In this document: one piece after another, positions 35,401 through 44,771 of the stretch
Layout: the number at the start of each line of letters is the position of its first letter
Position numbering within the stretch: position 1 is the first letter of the stretch
DNA from: a virus
Length of the DNA: 64,000 nucleotides
Direction: 5' to 3' (one strand)
Virus record (IMG/VR): IMGVR_UViG_3300031539_000002
Notes under the pieces: model-generated
Told to the model about the DNA's origin: nothing
Database searches by the model: none
The model's input: the letters and a program-made list of their open reading frames with translations, nothing else
Translations under genes and position numbers: made by a program

Positions 35401-38093
35401 CCAAACCGGTTCAAGGGGCCGAGCAGGGCAAGAAGATCACGACTACCACTGCGCGTGAACTTGCATCCTTCTCGATCGATCCTCAAGTCGCTTACAGTTT
35501 TGCGGGCGGAGACAAGCGAGTCGTCAGATATCGCGTGCCTGTTTCTCGCCTGTTCATTTCGCCTATCACGTTCGCCCCGCTTTCTTCGGCGAAGTCGCCG
35601 CACAGCGAGAACGAGTACGTCGTTGCCGGCCAGGATGGCATGGAGGGCAAGGTGATGCCCCAGAGCCTGTCCTCGTTCAGTTCGTCGAAGATGAAACTCG
35701 CAGCCTACGAGCGCCGCCCCTTGTTTGGGCCTGTCCTTGATGATGAGGCGTTGATCATCGAGTTTGAGCCTGAGGATGATGCGTGGCTGCGGGCGCCGGT
35801 CAAAGAGACCTGGTGGCCCAGCTACTGCAACCAGTACGATCAGTGGGCTGAGGAGTACGAGCCTCGAGTCGCCTCCAAGATCCTTCGATTGGCTCGTCAG
35901 CACTCGGGGTTCCGACGTGAACTCCTTGCGGTCCTGCATCCCGTCAAGAAGGCCACGACGGTTTTCGACGCTCCCGACACCAAGATGGCGGTTTCGATTT
36001 TCGATGCCCCTGACTCGGCCGCTGCCCCAAAGAAGACCAAGCCGCAGGAGCCCCCCAAACAGGGGCCCCCCAAGAAGCACAAGTTCATTGTTGACCCCAT
36101 CGATCCCGACAAGGAGTCGGACATCGAAGGAGACGCCGACGTGATTCGAGATCTCACAGAGAGTCTTGGGTACGGCCAAGTGACCGACGTGCACATTGAG
36201 GGTGATTACGACGAGGGCACCATCAAGGGCCGCATCGAGGTCGAGGTGGACGCCGACAAGGCACATGATTTCTACACGGCGTTGGGGGAAAAGGGGTACG
36301 CAAGCTGGCCCAAGCCCAAGCCTCCCTCGAACGGAGGCACCTTCGATGAGTGGTTCGCCAAGAAGTACGACGGCGGCAAGAAGAAGGTTCAGAACCCCAA
36401 CCCTGAGACCAAGGACAAGTACCCTGAGGTCGCCACGTCAACGGCGATGAAGGACAAGGCGTTCGCGGCCAAGGTCTATGCTGAATACCAGCAAGAGACG
36501 GGACAGGAAGCGCAGCCGAAGCCTCAGGCTGCTCCCCCAAAGGCAAAATCCCCGAAGCCCAAGGTTGCCCCTCCAGAGGAGGGACCCAAAGCGCTCAAGC
36601 CTTCCGATCTCAAGACCGGGGACAAGATCCGTTACTCGTACAAGGGCAACGAGTTCGTCGGTGATATCGTCTCCGCAGAAGGCGGGGAGGTTCGAGCGAA
36701 TCTCTATCACCCGAAGACGGGCAAGAAGCTGCGCTTCAAGCCGGTCACGATCAACGCGGAGAAGCTCAAAGAGTGGGGCGCAGAACGTGCTGACGACTGG
36801 CACCGTCCTCCTCCCCCGAAGATCAAGCCTGGTGTGAGGCTCGTCGTGCCCGACGAGGATCTCGATGGCCAGGTGATTGAGGTTGCCGACAAGTACCAAG
36901 ACGACGAAGGCAAGTGGATTCTCAAAGACACCGCCGGCGTGGAGTGGAACTGGGAGGGGTCGAGTGGCGGCAAATGGGAGGTGGCTCCCGAGAAGCCCAA
37001 GAAGAAAGAATACGCCGGCGGCCTCACGGAGGATGAGCACAGCTACATCTATTCGTGGCTCGAGACGGTGATGGGCAACGCCGAGGAGGACGGCAAGCCC
37101 GAGAAGAAGAAGCACTATGAGGACCTCCAGGCGAAGCTCTACGAGGGGAAGGAGCTCACTTTCGAGGAGGCCGACGAGCTGCACAGTATCGCGGACGATA
37201 ATCAAGACCCGGACCTGGACGAGGACTACGTTCCGTCCGCAGTCGAGAAACTGAAAAAGCTTCGGGATAGCCTTCAGCCAGAGGAGAAGCCCAAGGCTCA
37301 GGAACTGCTCGACATCGACGCGGGGGGTTTCAAGCAGGTCGGCCACCAGACCGGGAGCAACCCCGGTGGCCTTTACGAGGACAAGCAAGGCGAACGCTAC
37401 TACGTCAAGACGCCGAAGTCTGAGGACAGGGGACGCAACGAGATCTTGGCCGGCAAGCTCTACGGACTCGCGGACATCGCTATCCCTGAACTGACTCCTG
37501 CAACCCGCGACGGCAAGTTCAGCGTCGCTAGCAAGATCGTCCCAGGCCTCAGCGAGAATGCCCACAAACTTCGCTCTGGCGACGTGCCGGGGGTGCTCGA
37601 GGGCATTGCCGTGGACGCATGGCTCGGCAACTGGGATGTGGTGGGGCTCGAGTACGACAACCTGCTCGTGGACGAGGAAGGCAATGGTCGCCGCGTGGAT
37701 ACCGGCGGCGCGCTCCGATACCGAGCGATGGGTGCCCCGAAGGGTGATGCGTTCGGTGATGAGGTCACCGAGCTCGACACCTTCACGGACCCGGATCGGA
37801 AGTCCGGGAGTGTTTTCCACCACGCTACTCCGCAGCAGATCGTGGACAGCATTGACCGCGTGCTCGACATCCCCGAAGACAAGATCCGGGAGCTGGTGGA
37901 CCAGTGGGGACCGCAGGGCAAGGAGAGGGACAAGCTGTTCAAGACGCTCCTGGCTCGTCGAGAGAGCCTCAAGAAGCAGCGTGAGAAGTACGCAGAGAAA
38001 GCTGCCGAGAAGAAGGCAGCAGCCAGGGTATTGATGGCCGCACTCCGACGACCTGAGTTCCGTAAGGCGCTGCTGCGTGAGGTTCGGGGATGA
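32475..38093 (+). CDS. 1872-aa polyvalent protein: SH3/KOW-like repeats, ADP-ribosyltransferase, HipA/PI3-4K-like kinase
   Basis: ART: LYRG..ELASFS..ENEYVV (about 35380-35625). Kinase-like: GSNPGG, YYVK, NEILA, DAWLGNWD, DN, DTGG (about 37350-37730). Confidence 0.7.
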   Translation: MADFEWQSFFLDVTPEPPRSKVALSIFDAPDSVESEPPEKKKEPKPKAEEPKAESKPEAPASIFETPSAEPAAPAEEKPKETPEEGGQPYSPPAGAQDSGKWEEFLNLFYEGGKKKVKNPNAETKDKYPEVQLSTALKDQMFAHGIQQEFHAWLQQGKEDDPASDAPAVEEKPKSEQKKKPKVGTKVESLDQVVPGMFIENAWGTVGKVTSMLPDGGFRYRQFDKITNKWKGTTKIDKAKAEQYFSGQSFTVTEDPAQDIPKGSTTVHGTDVTPGDTVWFNGDPRKVKKVEEDPNKHGYRYQLEDGTWVNMHDVEGPKMESPHSYVYHQPGDPEPEPEPSAETPKPKKKEKVDVGDKVETSSQLTEGDWLESFDADDPSEKYLGKVTEVVEGGPFGEKGEYGPGVMIQDYSAVTGKMSGKPWFLSDEKLPEGDTTKVKPPKVKKGLTGKEVTDSKKLQEGDVLRIHEYDGGKTYTAQVIKNDDGWIVYNIVNPKTGKVSDTRTVSPQTFADELQVARLPASKVPKKLKPMSKTNDDGSVNPFALVMEQHAEKELAKAKAKSKEQTEDLQEDADPPAAAPKKDKPKGKTKKVDKGKWKLQTEQVGWDDIKVGDMVHTADYGPQRVVGHTGSGVRLESGVVLTKSQLKKDKGQFTVSRGDKPQKAKAPPIPERPQGKLVSKADTVQEGDVIEYEHNGTTYRGEVVSWDTLGEKFRVRIIYPPEYVAKYETYDEATGEKKFKTPSFDQAKIDKRKPRILSKDEMKAYDAKVKGYTQKIKDIDKQYSEDVAEYEAAMSGQETVTTGPLQHLEPPKDWNHDSTIAHDADRFFEQYKAMLGDKIESIVGGMSSGKSYWSGTSAMWDEMSEGERKLAQSAHDAAPEFRKLLTTEEWSAWQSALSTWQGSSGGSTAHTLMGGLENLGVEGGPKYFESSNVQHYREEGRKNEALHRAISKAMAYSQLVYDALGVKDVSLYRGTKTKPVQGAEQGKKITTTTARELASFSIDPQVAYSFAGGDKRVVRYRVPVSRLFISPITFAPLSSAKSPHSENEYVVAGQDGMEGKVMPQSLSSFSSSKMKLAAYERRPLFGPVLDDEALIIEFEPEDDAWLRAPVKETWWPSYCNQYDQWAEEYEPRVASKILRLARQHSGFRRELLAVLHPVKKATTVFDAPDTKMAVSIFDAPDSAAAPKKTKPQEPPKQGPPKKHKFIVDPIDPDKESDIEGDADVIRDLTESLGYGQVTDVHIEGDYDEGTIKGRIEVEVDADKAHDFYTALGEKGYASWPKPKPPSNGGTFDEWFAKKYDGGKKKVQNPNPETKDKYPEVATSTAMKDKAFAAKVYAEYQQETGQEAQPKPQAAPPKAKSPKPKVAPPEEGPKALKPSDLKTGDKIRYSYKGNEFVGDIVSAEGGEVRANLYHPKTGKKLRFKPVTINAEKLKEWGAERADDWHRPPPPKIKPGVRLVVPDEDLDGQVIEVADKYQDDEGKWILKDTAGVEWNWEGSSGGKWEVAPEKPKKKEYAGGLTEDEHSYIYSWLETVMGNAEEDGKPEKKKHYEDLQAKLYEGKELTFEEADELHSIADDNQDPDLDEDYVPSAVEKLKKLRDSLQPEEKPKAQELLDIDAGGFKQVGHQTGSNPGGLYEDKQGERYYVKTPKSEDRGRNEILAGKLYGLADIAIPELTPATRDGKFSVASKIVPGLSENAHKLRSGDVPGVLEGIAVDAWLGNWDVVGLEYDNLLVDEEGNGRRVDTGGALRYRAMGAPKGDAFGDEVTELDTFTDPDRKSGSVFHHATPQQIVDSIDRVLDIPEDKIRELVDQWGPQGKERDKLFKTLLARRESLKKQREKYAEKAAEKKAAARVLMAALRRPEFRKALLREVRG

Positions 38094-41000
38094 ACGACTG
38101 GACCGACTTTTTCTTGCAGAGGGCGCCTCGCCGAGCTGCAACGCAAACGCGGGTCGCACATGCTCGAGTTGCGCTCTCGATTTTTGACTCGCCAGATTCG
38201 GTTGAGCCTAAGTCTGAGGAAAAACCCGAACCGAAGCCTGAACCTCCGAAGGCAGAGAAGCCCGCGCCCGAACCTCCGAAGGCAGAGAAGCCCGCGCCTG
38301 AGCCTCCGAAGGCAGAGCCTCCCGCGAGTGTCTTCGATGCCCCGAGCCCTGATGCGGCGAAACCCAAAGAGAAGCCTGCCAAACCCAAGGCAGAGAAGCC
38401 GTCAGGGAGCAAGTGGCTTGAGTTTTTGGGCATCTTCTACGAGCAGGGCAAGAAGACGGTCAAAAACCCGAACCCGAAGACCGCCAAGAAGTACCCGGAG
38501 GTCATGTTCACCACGGCCATGAAGTTCAAGCCCTTCTCGGCTCAGGTGGCGAAGGAGTTTCAGGCGTGGCTGCAACAGGGAGGCGAGAAGCCCGCGAGCA
38601 AGCCTACGACTCCCGAACCTGAGGACGATTCGTACACGAACGAACAGTACGATGACGAACTCGGTTCCATCATCGATGAGTGGGAGAGCACCGACGGGGA
38701 CTTCAAAGAACTCGAAAGCATTGGCATGAAGTTCTGGGGTGACAAGTGGAACCCCGACATGCACGGGGAGATGCTCACTACGGTTAAGGAGCATTTCGAG
38801 TACGCGCTTGAAGATGCTCAAAGCCAGGGTGACGGCACAGGCTTTTACGAAGAGCAGATCGAGGAGGTTCAGAAGAAGATCGACGGACTCAAGAGCAAGT
38901 CCGAAGCTGAGGTGAAGAAGCCCGAGCCCAAGAAGGACAAACCCAAGAAACTCCCGAAGAAGCCGATCAAGAAGGTCCAAGGATGGGGACTCGCTCCGGG
39001 CATGACCGTCAAGCAGGACGGCAAGCCGAAGACGGTGAAGAGCGTGTCCTTCAAAGACGGATTGCAGATCGAGTTCGATGACGGTTCAAAGTGGTCTCCA
39101 GGTTTCGATGACAAGATCGAGGTCTTCGCGGAGGACGAGGCTACCCCCCTTGAGCACGGTGACAAGGTGACATCTGGTTCACAGCTCACGCCGGATCTCA
39201 TCCTCCGTCGTGGAAGCCAGACGGTCCAGGTAGTGAAGAGGATGCCTGACGGTCGAGTTCGTATCCGTCTCTTCAAGAAAGACGGGACTTGGGCGAAGGG
39301 CACCAAGTACTGGCCTGCCACTTGGGCCCATATTTCAATGCCCGCGCAGGAGTGGGAAGTCATCGGTGACCCCACCAAAGAGGCAGAACCGCCTAAGGAG
39401 AAATTGAAGGTCGGCGACAAGGTGCCTGACGCTTTTCATTTGTCGCCCGGTGACATCGTGTCCGTCAAGACCTACGGCACCGACTACGCCTACAAGATCG
39501 AGAAGGTCATGGCTGACGGCTCGTTGCGTATCTACCGACACGGGAGTGGGGACACTTGGTATGGGCCCCATAAGTGGAGCGCACACCAGGCAAAAAAACT
39601 GTTCAATTCGGACGATTCAAAGATCATCGAGCACCCCGATATCCAGGCGAAGAAGGACAAAGAGGAGGCTGAGGCAAAGGCCAAGATTCAGGCCGAGGAG
39701 TATGCCAAGGCTAAGGCCAAGAAGGAAAAGGAGAAGGCTGAGAAGGCCAAGAAGATCGAGGCCAACCGCCCGAAGCCGAAAAAGGGCAAACACGTCACTG
39801 CTCTGGACTCCGTGAAACTCGGTGATGCAATCACATGGGAGCACGAAGGCAAAACCTACGTCGGGCGTGTGTCCGACCAAGAGGGCAAGAACTTCTACGT
39901 TGCCACGGTGGACCCCAAGACGGGGGTGCAGGATGGTCTTTTCGCGCTCGGTGAGTACGATCTTCTACGGCTCCCGGTGGCACAGATCAGCGAATCTGAT
40001 TTGCCCCCTTCTGCGAAAGCCAAGCTTGCTCCGAAGCCCACGAAACCGGTGCCCCCCGAAGCACCCAAGCTCCCGAAGGCACCTGAGCCTCCGAAGTCGA
40101 AAAAGATCACAGAACCCTCTGAGGTCAAGGTCGGTGACTACGTCGAGTGGGAGCTCAAGGACAAAACCTACCGCGGGAAGGTCGTCTCATTTGATGAGGA
40201 CGGGAAGTTCCGTGCGAAGATCGACTGGCCTGAGGGTACGGGCAGCCTCGGCAAAACTCCGAGTTTCGATGCGAAGAAGATCGTCGATCGCGGCACCAGG
40301 GTCATCGACCCCGGGGCGATGGCGAAGTACGACGAGGTCAAGACCAAGCACGACAAGGAGGTCTCTGACCTGCAGGGTGCCCATCAGAAGGCGGTCGCCA
40401 AGCAGGACGCCAAGTTCCAGGAAGCGATGTCTGCTTGGCAGACACAGAAGGACCAGATTGAGGGCAAATCGTGGGTGCCCAAGCGTCCCGTCAAACGCGA
40501 GCAGGGCGAGAACATCCCGAGCGCGCCCGAGGCGTGGGACCACGATCATCCCATCATGGAGCAGGCATTCGATCTCGTGGACGAATACTCGACGAAGTAC
40601 GCGAGCTTCTTCGCTGAGAAGCGCAAGGAACTCGAGAAGAAGGCACAGTCTTCAACCGTCGGAGGCAGTTCTACAGCCGCGAAACAGATGTGGGATGAGA
40701 GGTCGATGGGCGAGAAGATGCTCGCCATCGGTGCTCATGACTTCGGGCACAAGTTCATGGAGGACGTGCTCACTCCTACAGAGCGCCAAAAGTTCTACGA
40801 TTACATTGGCAACTGGCAGGGATCTTCGGGCTCCGCCGGGGGCCACAAGCTGATGGGAGCGCTCGAGGCCATGGGAGTTGAGGGCAAGATGAAGGCCCAT
40901 GACAAGGGCAAAGAGCCTTACCGTGCGGAGGGCGCCCAAGACAAGGTGCTCCAGACTGCCATCGCCAAGGCCATGGCGTACACGCAAGCAGTAGGGGATG

Positions 41001-41836
41001 CGCTTGGTGTGGAAGAGATCACTTTGTATCGGGGAGGGAAATCATCGACCTCTAGCCTGTCATCCGCCAAGGCTGGACAGATGGTGGCGCTCCCCAATGC
41101 TCGGGAACTGACCAGTTTCAGCGCGAGCCCTTCTACTGCTTACGGGTTCGGAATGTACCAAATGAGGTCCCGTGTCCCGATCAGCCGTCTTTTCCTCTCC
41201 CCCATCACGTACCCCAAATTGGGTGCCGGAAGTGGGTCGGGCTCAGGATACGGCGAGAATGAATTTATCGTTGCCGGCATTGCGGGAGATGGGGTCCAAA
41301 GGATGCCCCCGTCGATGTCGGATTACGACCCGGTTGTCATGAACGCCCCGTCCAAGAAAGCAGCATCAATGAAGACCGCCGCGGATGAGGATGAGGATTG
41401 GGACGACGACCACGAAGATTGGAGCAAGCACATGGAAGACACCCGTACCAACAAGAAAACCGCTGTGAGGATTTTGCGGCTCGCCAAGAACAACGACAAG
41501 TTCCGTGATGAGCTGCTCGGCGCTATGCGTCGAGTCAATGCCCCTCGAGACTTCGCCGTCGAACAAGAAGCGCAGCAGGTTCTGCTCGCACACCTGCAAG
41601 CTGGCGACGTTGTGCGATTCGCTTTCCGAACCTCCGAGAACGCGCCCGCCGAAGAAGAGACGCGTGTTGCTTTGTTCGACTACGACCCCGCCAACCGGGG
41701 CGTCGAACTTTCGACTGAGGGCAGTGGTCGTGCGATGCTCGAGGACCGGGGACAAAATGAAGGGGTGGTCTACATCCCGAGCTCAGGGCCGGCCCGTCCT
41801 CTGCTCAAAATCACGCACGTTCGTTCGCGGATCTAG
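38090..41836 (+). CDS. 1248-aa polyvalent protein with SH3/KOW-like repeats and ADP-ribosyltransferase; paralog of preceding gene
   Basis: Same N-terminus (W..FFL, VALSIFD.PDS), NPN..YPEV, WQGSSG, LYRG..ELTSFS..ENEFIV. Confidence 0.7.
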   Translation: MNDWTDFFLQRAPRRAATQTRVAHARVALSIFDSPDSVEPKSEEKPEPKPEPPKAEKPAPEPPKAEKPAPEPPKAEPPASVFDAPSPDAAKPKEKPAKPKAEKPSGSKWLEFLGIFYEQGKKTVKNPNPKTAKKYPEVMFTTAMKFKPFSAQVAKEFQAWLQQGGEKPASKPTTPEPEDDSYTNEQYDDELGSIIDEWESTDGDFKELESIGMKFWGDKWNPDMHGEMLTTVKEHFEYALEDAQSQGDGTGFYEEQIEEVQKKIDGLKSKSEAEVKKPEPKKDKPKKLPKKPIKKVQGWGLAPGMTVKQDGKPKTVKSVSFKDGLQIEFDDGSKWSPGFDDKIEVFAEDEATPLEHGDKVTSGSQLTPDLILRRGSQTVQVVKRMPDGRVRIRLFKKDGTWAKGTKYWPATWAHISMPAQEWEVIGDPTKEAEPPKEKLKVGDKVPDAFHLSPGDIVSVKTYGTDYAYKIEKVMADGSLRIYRHGSGDTWYGPHKWSAHQAKKLFNSDDSKIIEHPDIQAKKDKEEAEAKAKIQAEEYAKAKAKKEKEKAEKAKKIEANRPKPKKGKHVTALDSVKLGDAITWEHEGKTYVGRVSDQEGKNFYVATVDPKTGVQDGLFALGEYDLLRLPVAQISESDLPPSAKAKLAPKPTKPVPPEAPKLPKAPEPPKSKKITEPSEVKVGDYVEWELKDKTYRGKVVSFDEDGKFRAKIDWPEGTGSLGKTPSFDAKKIVDRGTRVIDPGAMAKYDEVKTKHDKEVSDLQGAHQKAVAKQDAKFQEAMSAWQTQKDQIEGKSWVPKRPVKREQGENIPSAPEAWDHDHPIMEQAFDLVDEYSTKYASFFAEKRKELEKKAQSSTVGGSSTAAKQMWDERSMGEKMLAIGAHDFGHKFMEDVLTPTERQKFYDYIGNWQGSSGSAGGHKLMGALEAMGVEGKMKAHDKGKEPYRAEGAQDKVLQTAIAKAMAYTQAVGDALGVEEITLYRGGKSSTSSLSSAKAGQMVALPNARELTSFSASPSTAYGFGMYQMRSRVPISRLFLSPITYPKLGAGSGSGSGYGENEFIVAGIAGDGVQRMPPSMSDYDPVVMNAPSKKAASMKTAADEDEDWDDDHEDWSKHMEDTRTNKKTAVRILRLAKNNDKFRDELLGAMRRVNAPRDFAVEQEAQQVLLAHLQAGDVVRFAFRTSENAPAEEETRVALFDYDPANRGVELSTEGSGRAMLEDRGQNEGVVYIPSSGPARPLLKITHVRSRI
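38237..38326 (+). repeat. 30-bp tandem repeat x3 (PEPPKAEKPA)
   Basis: CC(T/C)GA(A/G)CCTCCGAAGGCAGAG..CCCGCG three times in frame. Confidence 0.9.
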
Positions 41837-42009
41837 TCTTCGTCCTTCCAGCTCGCGTCTTTCACCCACGGGTGGTCAGGCCCGGCGCCACGGCACAGTT
41901 CGTGGTCGTCGGGCGTCCATTTTGTGCGCCCCGTACTTCGCTTCCCTCGCTTGAGAGCCATCTCGGCCTTGAAGGCTTCGCTCCTGTCCTCGTAGGGGCC
42001 GTACAAGGC
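41833..42009 (-). pseudogene. Orphaned 3' half of the SLX1-like GIY-YIG gene
   Basis: Translates ALYGPYEDRSEAFKAEMALKRGKR..W...LCRG, preceded by an in-frame TGA; homologous to the C-half of 42755-43114. Confidence 0.8.
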
Positions 42010-42033
42010 TCAAAAGTCTCGGTAGAATGTCGT

Positions 42034-42783
42034 GTGAGACGCATCGAACTTCCACCGATTACAGTACAGACACGACGTGGTGGTCTGTATGTGGTCTGGC
42101 TCTCGGACACCCACTATTACGGAGGAAGGGCCGTGTATTTTCGGGCCCGGTGGCGCCGTCACCTGACTCAATTTGAGCAAGGGAAACATCCCAACCGATA
42201 CGCTCAAGCGGTGTTTGACAAGCACGGGAAATTTGTGCCCGAGGTCCTCCAGACGTTGCCTACTAACGAACAAGTGACAGCGGAGAAGGGGTGGCTCGAT
42301 TCTCATTTCGGCAAGACAGGGTGTGTGAATCTTAGCCAAAGTCCTGTGAACAACACGCATGTCAGTGAAGCGGCTCGGCGCAAGATTTCGAAGGCCCACA
42401 AGGGTCGCAAACATACGCCCGAAGCGATTCGAAGGAGCTCCGAGTCGCGGCGCGGAATGAAGGCATCGGAGGAGGCTCGGCACAACAATTCTCGCGCGCA
42501 GACCGGCAAGAAAATGTCTCTGGAGGCGCGCCAGAACATGTCCCGGTCCAGCGCACGCAAAGGGAGTCCCATCACGGACAGCATGAGAGAAGCCACCATC
42601 GCATCCAACAAAGCTAGACGCGGTGAGACCCGGTCAGAATCTGTACGGCAGCATCTCTCCGAAGTGGTTTCAAAGCTGGTTTGGGTTTGCAACGAGTCGA
42701 GTTCTCGACGTGTGTTGCCGTCAAAAGTCCCTGCTCTTCTGGGACAGGGATGGATTAAGGGTCGGAAATATCGGAATCGTTGA
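42034..42783 (+). mobile_element. GIY-YIG homing endonuclease with NUMOD3 repeats
   Basis: GLYVV..YYGGR..RWRRH; SEAARRKISKAHKGRKHTPEA-type repeats. GG-TAGAAT lies 5 nt before GTG 42034. Confidence 0.8.
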
Positions 42784-43114
42784 TTTCGGCAACCCGAGGA
42801 TCGCCGGCCCCTAGCCCGCGACACCATGGGCTGTTCTCGGGGGACCAACGGCAGCGTGCCTCTCCTCGTCTCCCTTTTTTCAAAGTGTACTCAGCCTTCA
42901 GTGCCTCCGAACGGTTGCTGTACGGTCCGTAAATCGCTTTCATTCTCCACGGACGTTTGGTGGAGGTGTAGCGCCCGCCGCCTTTGATCTCGCCGTTGTG
43001 CTGCCTCAGGCGCCTTGAGGGCTCCGTTGTAGATCCCACGTAGAAGAACCCCGGTGCCGGCTTCCCCTTCGTGAATCTCGGTTGCTCGCTTTGTATGACG
43101 TAGACCCACCACAT
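42755..43114 (-). CDS. Small SLX1/UPF0213-like GIY-YIG nuclease
   Basis: WVYVI..FYVGSTTEPSRRLRQHNGEIKGGGRYT..RPW..RSEALKAEY. Confidence 0.8.
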   Translation of the reverse strand: MWWVYVIQSEQPRFTKGKPAPGFFYVGSTTEPSRRLRQHNGEIKGGGRYTSTKRPWRMKAIYGPYSNRSEALKAEYTLKKGRRGEARCRWSPENSPWCRGLGAGDPRVAEINDSDISDP

Positions 43115-43156
43115 GGCGCTGTTCCCCCTATAGGGAGGGGTTGGATGGAGGCATCC

Positions 43157-43795
43157 ATGAACAAGGTACTCACTTCGCTCACCGTCATTCTCATGTTCTT
43201 CATGACGGGTTGCCCTCACGGGCTCCCTGACGGGATCGCTGGCCCTCCCTCCTACGAGAACGGCGCTCCGCAAGATCCTCACTACGAGGAGATGGCGATG
43301 CGCACGTCCGAGATGGCGCCCGCGGGGGCCATCCCTTCGGACCCCCATGAGGCGTGGCTCCTGGCGATGCAGGAGATCGAGGACAACGGAATTCGTATCG
43401 TCCCGAAAGCCGAGGGGATTGAGAAGTGGGACAAGTTCACGACCACGTTCCCGAGCAAGATCTTCGTTTCCAAGGATTGGGACGAGAAAAGCGAAGCTAC
43501 CCAGGCGATCGTCCTGTGGCACGAGATCGTTCACCTGCGTGAGTACGACGCACACACGCCGCTCGTGATGGGAGTGATTTACCTCAGCGTTTCGGAAGCT
43601 CGATGGGCACTTGAAGTGCAGGCGTACCGAGAGAGCTTCCGAGTGATGCGTCTCTTCGGGATGGCCGAGGAAGAGATCCAGAAGCAAATGCGCCCTCGTG
43701 CCGAGTCCCTCTACGTGGGTTACGATCTCTCGACGATGCCGAAGGACTACGCGCTCGACAAGGCTGTCGAGATCTGGATGCTCGACGCCCCGTAG
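43157..43795 (+). CDS. Lipoprotein with HExxH zincin-like motif
   Basis: GGAGG RBS; MNKVLTSLTVILMFFMTGC; LWHEIVHLRE..ALEVQAY. Confidence 0.6.
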   Translation: MNKVLTSLTVILMFFMTGCPHGLPDGIAGPPSYENGAPQDPHYEEMAMRTSEMAPAGAIPSDPHEAWLLAMQEIEDNGIRIVPKAEGIEKWDKFTTTFPSKIFVSKDWDEKSEATQAIVLWHEIVHLREYDAHTPLVMGVIYLSVSEARWALEVQAYRESFRVMRLFGMAEEEIQKQMRPRAESLYVGYDLSTMPKDYALDKAVEIWMLDAP

Positions 43796-43812
43796 CGTCG
43801 GTAGTGTCTACG

Positions 43813-44400
43813 GTGGCTTCGCGCTCCACCATCAGTCGCAAAGCCCTCGAACGTCTGTACCCCGGTGCTGACCTCGAGGGCTTTGTGCCGACACATTGGG
43901 TCGAAGTCCTAGACGGTCGAAGTCGGAAGGTGCTGCACGAAGACGCGGTTGTTCTCGGCGAGCCCGAGGGCCAGCACGGCATCCGTTACGCACACACACC
44001 AAGAGTTGAAGAGCCGAAGTACGCTTGCATCCCTCCTGAGCGTTGGCAGTGTCTTGAGCGACACGGCATGGTGCGTGCTCGAGTGGTGAAGTACGTCCCC
44101 GACTACGTGTTGCCTACCGACCGCATGGGCAACGTCTACTTCGTGCAGAGTTCAGGGCCTGCGGCTCCAATCAAGATCGGTTGGTCGCAAGATGTTGAGC
44201 GCCGTATCGCGGAACTCCAGACTGCAAACGCCCACAAGCTCGTGTTGCTAGGGACCGTGGCCGGGACCATGGAAAGAGAGGCTGCGCTGCACGCACAGTT
44301 CGCTTACTTACGCATGGAAGCTGAATGGTTCCGAAACGCGCCTGAGATTCACGCATTCATCGCGGCGAACGGTAGCGTGCCTATACGCGGCCAGGAGTAA
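43813..44400 (+). CDS. Protein with C-terminal T5orf172/MUG113-type GIY-YIG domain
   Basis: VYFVQ..IKIGWS..RRIAELQTAN..E..LH..F..EWF; GG-TAGTGT 5 nt before GTG. Confidence 0.7.
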   Translation: MASRSTISRKALERLYPGADLEGFVPTHWVEVLDGRSRKVLHEDAVVLGEPEGQHGIRYAHTPRVEEPKYACIPPERWQCLERHGMVRARVVKYVPDYVLPTDRMGNVYFVQSSGPAAPIKIGWSQDVERRIAELQTANAHKLVLLGTVAGTMEREAALHAQFAYLRMEAEWFRNAPEIHAFIAANGSVPIRGQE

Positions 44401-44405
44401 GCGTC

Positions 44406-44771
44406 ATGGGTGTCGAGTCCAAAGTACTGCGGTTGCCCGTCCCACAAGAGAAGGTCACCTGCCATCTGACGGTGCCGCGTTTCGACAACGTCATCGCGCT
44501 CGAGGAGGATGTGCCCACGGGCCTGTCTGCGATAGCCACACAGATGGAGCGCGTCGCGGAACAGTTCGATGGTCTTGCTCGAGTGTTCGAGGACTGCCCT
44601 GACGCGAGCTACACCCCTGAAACTTGTTTCATCAACGGACAGCTCACCTTCGTTTTCCAGATCCCTCGTAATCGGGTCCAGCGCCTTCGTGAGTTGGGTT
44701 GGAGTGTCGAGGATCTCGACATCAAAGGCGAGGGTACAGTGCCAAGCAGACCTGAGATTTCAGATGCCTAA
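44406..44771 (+). CDS. Hypothetical protein
   Basis: AGGAG RBS; 121 aa. Confidence 0.55.
   Translation: MGVESKVLRLPVPQEKVTCHLTVPRFDNVIALEEDVPTGLSAIATQMERVAEQFDGLARVFEDCPDASYTPETCFINGQLTFVFQIPRNRVQRLRELGWSVEDLDIKGEGTVPSRPEISDA

Follow-up and report, generated by a model that had tools for sequence, protein, structure and literature searches.

A putative homing endonuclease gene with a replacement 3' half inside a small GIY-YIG nuclease gene of a large phage-like genome

In this study, we report a locus in a 64,000-nucleotide stretch of viral DNA (IMG/VR record IMGVR_UViG_3300031539_000002; the whole stretch is referred to here as the window) at which a small GIY-YIG nuclease gene has very probably been invaded by a homing cassette that supplied a substitute for the part of the gene it disrupted. 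The cassette consists of a 3' half of one tail class, designated T-type, and an antisense gene for a putative I-TevI-like GIY-YIG/NUMOD3 endonuclease, and it appears to have homed into the middle of a phage gene whose own tail was of a second class, O-type. The small gene now reads from its native 5' half into the cassette-borne 3' half, and the native tail is displaced and left behind as an untranslated orphan on the far side of the endonuclease gene. Homing endonuclease genes of phages are known to persist in introns or inteins, between genes, or by splitting a gene. The locus described here would represent a fourth solution in phage, in which the element carries a recoded replacement for the disrupted gene part, and this replacement half keeps the host gene whole and presumably uncuttable. 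Coordinates of all features are listed in Table 1.

The three components of the locus, namely a minus-strand SLX1-like gene ending in one copy of the tail, an antisense GIY-YIG/NUMOD3 gene, and beyond it a second, start-less copy of the tail, had been described in an earlier note made from the sequence without database searches, and all three were recovered in this analysis. The small gene runs from an ATG at 43114 to a TAA at 42757-42755 and encodes 119 amino acids plus stop. Its product matched the Pfam GIY-YIG family (PF01541) with 49 bits and an E-value of 7.6e-13 (cut-off 22.6). The nearest solved relatives were SLX1 nuclease domains (7wme_A, 9.5e-10), and similarity was also found to the bacterial UPF0213 structures 1ywl (1ywl_A, 2.1e-6) and 1zg2. 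The match to SLX1 spans residues 21-82, and the C-terminal RING/zinc-finger of eukaryotic SLX1 is absent; as the protein comprises the nuclease domain alone in only 119 amino acids, the gene is called SLX1-like and not an SLX1 orthologue. A K-A-E motif in the tail aligns to the F-E of SLX1 and contains the catalytic Glu known from the GIY-YIG superfamily. Cut off from any tail, the 5' half would thus be inactive, and function requires the replacement; being joined in frame and carrying this residue, the new tail leaves the host gene whole without splicing. The identical hybrid protein is encoded on 18 contigs, the two representatives shown deriving from one JGI and one ENA sample.

The orphan tail has been missed by the gene callers. 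Its reading frame is closed just ahead of it by an in-frame TGA at 42012-42010, and no 5' half lies upstream. The orphan and the in-frame tail are identical at 25/53 residues (BLASTP E = 1e-18), a match that is hence not due to chance, and at the DNA level they are about 55% identical.

The comparison with uninvaded relatives had been set beforehand as the test of the proposal that the orphan is the original end of the gene. A 727-bp contig, L001, carries an uninvaded allele encoding protein P0020, which is identical to the window over the 5' half (56/56 amino acids) and matches the orphan at 40/41 positions of the tail, as against 22/41 for the in-frame tail. L001 gave a split alignment to the window, with positions 10-553 aligned to 43488-42947 (91%) and positions 563-727 to 42009-41845 (95%), which places the insert exactly between the codons for K-R-P-W and A-L-Y-G-P-Y. 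The 5' half of the window is 94.0% identical to L001 in nucleotides, with 10 synonymous and no non-synonymous codon differences, and the orphan is 95.2% identical to the L001 tail, with 7 synonymous differences, 1 non-synonymous difference and an intact frame. The in-frame tail, in contrast, is only 51% identical to the L001 tail and differs from it by 15 synonymous and 29 non-synonymous codons. When changes on the orphan branch were polarised with a second empty allele, L063, as outgroup, too few were resolved for a test of relaxed selection.

L063 is a 141-kb IMG/VR viral contig in which the empty site is syntenic on both flanks. On one side lie homologs of the 534-aa, 121-aa, MUG113 and 216-aa genes of the window, and on the other a homolog of the 1248-aa gene that converges on the small gene; the two stops overlap by 4 nt (4351/4354), as does the stop of the orphan in the window. 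The small gene of L063 is uninterrupted, encodes 117 amino acids and has an O-type tail, to which the orphan is 78% identical in amino acids. Additionally, a contig from sequencing run X7 (sample S7), belonging to a relative about 90% identical, connects position 42001 to 42946, so that the 5' half runs on into the orphan. Run X8 of the same sample yielded contigs identical to the endonuclease gene, thus both alleles occur in one sample. L001, L063 and the X7 contig together reveal a presence/absence polymorphism at one site among close relatives.

The composition of the insert also sets it apart. G+C content at third codon positions (GC3) is 0.79 in the native 5' half and 0.79 in the orphan, and 0.59 in both the in-frame tail and the endonuclease gene, which bears out the remark of the earlier note that the orphan has genome-typical codons and the in-frame copy is richer in A/T. 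In 62-codon windows of the long genes of the genome, GC3 averaged 0.74 (standard deviation 0.07), and a value of 0.59 falls in the lowest 2%. The insert thus looks foreign, as judged from the low GC3 shared by its tail and its endonuclease gene.

A search for the small-protein family returned 285 metagenomic matches, many at 60-78% identity, 120 of which were listed. Two tail classes were recognised in the family, differing at both ends of the tail: O-type, with RPW-x-P-R-A at the beginning and HPWV at the end, and T-type, with RPW-x-M/L-K/R-A and DPRV-x-EIN. Among the matches listed, the best matches of the 5' half are O-type (P0020 95%, P0026 84%, P0036 83%), and the best match of the in-frame tail is the T-type protein P0003 (35/41, 85%). 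Tail class tracks the tree of the 5' halves, requiring 9 changes compared to about 36 in shuffled data, and 0/500 shuffles gave a value as low; in this tree the 5' half of the window groups with the O-type sequences. The expressed gene is therefore an O/T hybrid. The empty sites L001 and L063, the tail classes and GC3 all support an insertion into another GIY-YIG gene that does not depend on splicing, as the earlier note had proposed.

The endonuclease gene lies antisense to the small gene and shares its final 29 nt (42755-42783) with the end of the replacement tail. Gene callers (JGI, ENA) place its start at a GTG at 41872, giving 303 amino acids. The real start is most likely the GTG at 42034, giving 249 amino acids, since homologs of 245-251 amino acids begin at the aligned position. 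The over-extension (41872-42033) adds 54 codons that are read from the strand opposite the orphan, as is also the case in proteins P0123 and P0124, and produces a spurious conserved 'N-terminal domain'; the over-extended reading frame and the overlooked orphan are of practical concern for annotation. The protein matched phrog_314 'homing endonuclease' (7.5e-17) and the I-TevI structure 1mk0 (5.6e-6), aligning to the latter over about 80 residues that include the GIY, YIG, R-W-x-R-H and Glu motifs. The N-terminal domain keeps the conserved Tyr, Tyr, Arg, His, Glu and Asn positions, and no variation was seen among 16 homologs (41-64% identity) in the motif columns aligned with the catalytic domain of I-TevI, hence the enzyme looks active. 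Many of its homologs carry precomputed PF07460. No match to a group I intron or any other Rfam family was found in 41300-43700, and the endonuclease cannot be an intein as its gene is antisense.

The same layout recurs elsewhere. Profile scans of the loci fetched with the endonuclease identified the order orphan (minus), endonuclease (plus) and full small gene (minus) in eight distinct loci, these being the window, L011, L012, L014, L015 (=L049), L033, L037 and L052. The orphan begins at position 63-70 of the hidden Markov model (HMM) of the family in all eight, at the A-L-Y-G-P-Y codons. In-frame tails are T-type at every invaded locus, and the orphans are O-type wherever their end is visible. 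The endonucleases of the recurrent loci are 45-64% identical to that of the window, and the loci share none of its neighbour genes, a comparison informative for L011, L014, L015 and L037 only, the other contigs being short or cut. In L013/L032 and L040 an endonuclease gene lies downstream of a T-type gene with no orphan, which is plausibly the ancestral, free-standing state.

Taken together, these observations are best accounted for by homing. The endonuclease would cut O-type alleles near the junction in co-infecting relatives, and the break would be repaired from the invaded genome, with the 5' half and the orphan acting as homology arms. The T-type junction differs from L001 at all 9 replaced bases and at many third positions beyond them, and is thus probably not recognised, which would make the carrier immune. 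The cassette itself may have a single origin, in an endonuclease gene that stood free downstream of a T-type gene, the state seen in L013/L032 and L040.

Several points weigh against this account. The cleavage site, the activity of the enzyme and the immunity of the junction are all predictions from sequence. The endonuclease scored below the cut-offs of Pfam GIY-YIG (18.9 against 22.6) and NUMOD3 (19.2 bits against 20.4), and also of TIGR01453, the group I intron endonuclease family (44.4 bits against 56.05); judged by this last score it is related to the TIGR01453 subfamily and not a member of it. Neither a promoter nor a clear ribosome-binding site could be identified ahead of the endonuclease gene; a sigma-70 promoter scan returned 0 sites, and terminator-like sites were at chance level. 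In view of the missing promoter match and the 24-nt gap ahead of the gene, expression would probably occur by read-through from the upstream plus-strand operon. The donor is unsampled, the nearest endonuclease homolog being 64% identical. Synteny downstream of the insert rests on L063, the more distant relative (about 80% nucleotide identity), since L001 ends at the stop codon of the gene. The protein list of the family contained no close empty-site relative of the other invaded loci, and the 5' halves of L011, L014 and L015 are not resolved as O-type, as 58 columns are too few for the 5'-half tree to place them.

The predicted status of the enzyme, the distance to its nearest homolog and the lack of a promoter would also suit an old fossil, in which a single illegitimate recombination produced the layout, the endonuclease is inactive or domesticated, and the arrangement has since been inherited vertically; truncated or decayed versions are indeed seen in L036 and L037. 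We consider this improbable. The flanks are 94-95% identical to the empty allele whereas the insert is about 51% identical to the native tail, which indicates that the insert was gained around or after the time at which two close phages diverged. Moreover, the orphan is undecayed in frame and in its 7 synonymous to 1 non-synonymous differences, the catalytic columns are invariant across 16 homologs, and the layout is found in phages that are not syntenic.

The presence of two homologous tails 750 bp apart on the same strand could suggest a local tandem duplication of the phage's own gene, after which an endonuclease gene landed between the copies and one 5' half was deleted. This is already contradicted, and we give it very little credence: protein identity between the tails is only 47% and their allele classes differ, the in-frame tail has the same foreign GC3 as the endonuclease gene, the edge of the duplication is also the edge of the insert and falls at the same codon in eight loci, and empty sites hold one gene with an orphan-type tail. 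Least credible of all is an assembly chimera joining two related phages at a conserved gene, as, despite the metagenomic origin of the window and the co-occurrence of related strains in samples, the identical arrangement was recovered from 18 contigs (those shown include JGI and ENA samples), the stretch is complete in Logan contigs of six runs (each run may be its source), a 23.6-kb record in run X1 spans it with no differences, and seven further loci share the layout.

Beyond the homing event at this locus, a broader interpretation can be offered tentatively, at slightly less than even odds in our estimation: that such cassettes act as a natural phage 'home-and-rescue' gene drive. They would spread actively among divergent large phages by cutting, during co-infection, the O-type alleles of a small GIY-YIG gene that is widespread. 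As a homology arm, the orphan would maintain cassette mobility; tail classes would be swapped between lineages as a side effect, and competitors among the phages might be attacked, with the cassette as a weapon. In synthetic home-and-rescue homing gene drives, the nuclease is combined with a recoded 3' portion of its target, and the design of the cassette matches that of such engineered rescue-type drives: the wild-type allele would be cut, the element inserted, and gene function kept by a recoded, uncuttable part carried along. Unlike the synthetic drives, the element in the window is natural, protein-guided and viral. The locus lends itself well to experiment, since one defined empty site, one filled site and eight naturally occurring variants are available.

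The closest known system is that of the fungal mitochondrial mobile open reading frames (mORFs) with a C-terminal duplication, a precedent that the earlier note had cited and that proved to be real. These have been described in atp6 of Allomyces macrogynus, in atp6, atp9, cox2 and nad3 of Glomus, in atp9 of Rhizopus and in cox2 of Mortierella (PMC3630166). The native C-terminus in these cases is near-identical to the gene of a sister species and the inserted copy is divergent, and the enzyme of the Glomus atp9 mORF belongs to the GIY-YIG family (PMC3630166). Partial duplications of atp6 and cob next to GIY-YIG/LAGLIDADG reading frames have also been reported (PMC6279837). All structural features that define the fungal C-terminal-duplication mORFs are present in the window: an endonuclease reading frame within a protein gene that has neither intron nor intein, a foreign in-frame C-terminus replacing the native one, a native C-terminus retained downstream, and an orphan much closer than the inserted tail to the gene of a relative (95.2% against 51% nucleotide identity to L001). 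The differences are that the host is a bacteriophage and not an organelle; that the endonuclease gene is antisense with overlapping 3' ends, unlike the fungal elements, which are co-oriented or fused in frame; that the target is itself a GIY-YIG nuclease gene; and that this type of element occupies one conserved insertion codon in eight loci. The kind of mechanism is known from fungal mitochondria; the phage host and the antisense architecture distinguish the present locus.

Among phages, the free-standing homing endonucleases SegB, SegF, SegG and MobE of T4 perform intron-less homing from genes lying between other genes, and the intragenic cases (mobE in Aeh1 nrdA, mobA in T4 gene 60/39, seg in gene 43) split the gene into two polypeptides (PMC2988022). 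The element in the window resembles the T4 enzymes in being an I-TevI-like GIY-YIG gene without an intron in a phage genome, and in the expected cutting of the allele of a relative during co-infection with co-conversion of flanks. It differs from them in that the invaded gene is kept whole by the carried replacement half. With I-TevI itself it shares the alignable catalytic domain and, putatively, NUMOD3-type DNA-binding repeats; it differs in the absence of an intron at the locus, in the TIGR01453 score below cut-off and in its C-terminal domain. The string 'duplicat' does not occur in the text of the review of T4 homing endonucleases (PMC2988022), and no phage example of a replacement-tail endonuclease was found in the literature searched, which does not prove that none exists.

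Variants of the layout were also observed. Locus L036 (693-767) carries a short orphan remnant covering family-HMM positions 96-120 that is T-type (DPRVAEIN) and not O-type; it may stem from a second invasion, of an allele converted earlier, or be what is left of an older event that has decayed. In L018, L034/L035 and L048, more distant relatives of the endonuclease (35-48% identity) are placed either upstream of a complete small GIY-YIG gene or in the same orientation as it, so the association of this endonuclease family with its target gene takes several layouts. Short extra copies of TAYGGNCCNTAY (Y-G-P-Y) are present at the orphan-side junction in L015 (3111-3150), L014 (3930-3951) and L033 (100-129), where they may be scars left by repair at the cleavage site or close to it.

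A different rearrangement was found at the syntenic locus of L065 (3224-4488) and of L074, a 618-kb viral contig. In L065, the N-terminus of a 396-aa reading frame is rich in K/R, and the frame also contains a second GIY-YIG domain (Pfam stretch 168-239) and, inverted and in frame, the complete small gene; on the other strand, a 5' orphan corresponding to residues 1-45 of the small gene adjoins the homolog of the 216-aa gene. This arrangement may be another endonuclease-type invasion, one that left an N-terminal orphan. Convergent reading frames overlapping the small gene in L006 (309 aa) and L009 (266 aa) were considered as endonuclease homologs and rejected, being unrelated.

Table 1 Features of the invaded locus, numbered by position in the window
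Feature	Position	Strand	Description
Flanking 1248-aa gene	38090..41836	+	Convergent with small gene; stop overlaps orphan stop by 4 nt
Orphan native 3' half	41833..42009	-	58 codons plus stop; O-type (ALYGPY ... HPWV); start-less
Spacer between orphan and endonuclease start	42010..42033	+	24 nt; minus strand holds TGA 42012-42010
Inserted cassette	42010..42946	.	937 bp; absent from empty alleles; replaces 9 bp (codons A-P-R) of L001
Homing endonuclease gene (putative)	42034..42783	+	249 aa from GTG 42034 (most likely start); GIY-YIG, putative NUMOD3, C-terminal domain
Hybrid small GIY-YIG gene (SLX1/UPF0213-like)	42755..43114	-	Native 5' half and cassette-borne 3' half, in frame
Cassette-borne replacement 3' half	42755..42946	-	63 codons plus TAA; T-type; catalytic Glu in K-A-E motif
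Native 5' half	42947..43114	-	56 codons, ends K-R-P-W; GIY, YIG, Arg/His motifs
Flanking 216-aa gene	43145..43795	+	Divergent from small gene; syntenic in L001, L004, L063
MUG113/T5orf172-domain gene	43804..44400		198 aa; two genes from invaded gene

MUG113/T5orf172 is another homing-endonuclease-like nuclease domain. Its gene is kept at the empty sites L004, where the allele is naturally T-type, and L063, and is hence not part of the cassette. The gap of about 30 nt between the divergent starts of the small gene and the 216-aa gene contains a palindrome, CCTATAGGGGGAA / CCTATAGGGG, at 43122-43134, which is kept in L001. It was rejected as a general promoter motif on the grounds of its single exact occurrence in the window.

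The context of the locus is phage-like, as indicated by IMG/VR relatives and a match to a head maturation protease. A blastn search of 41000-44500 against 50,697 phage records gave no match, and a PHROG scan of ten other proteins of the window assigned almost no named functions. The window belongs to a very divergent large phage-like genome, represented by contigs of up to 226 kb and by IMG/VR relatives of up to 618 kb. Giant-virus metagenome bins (GVMAG) also contain distant copies of the small GIY-YIG gene, at 37-47% identity.

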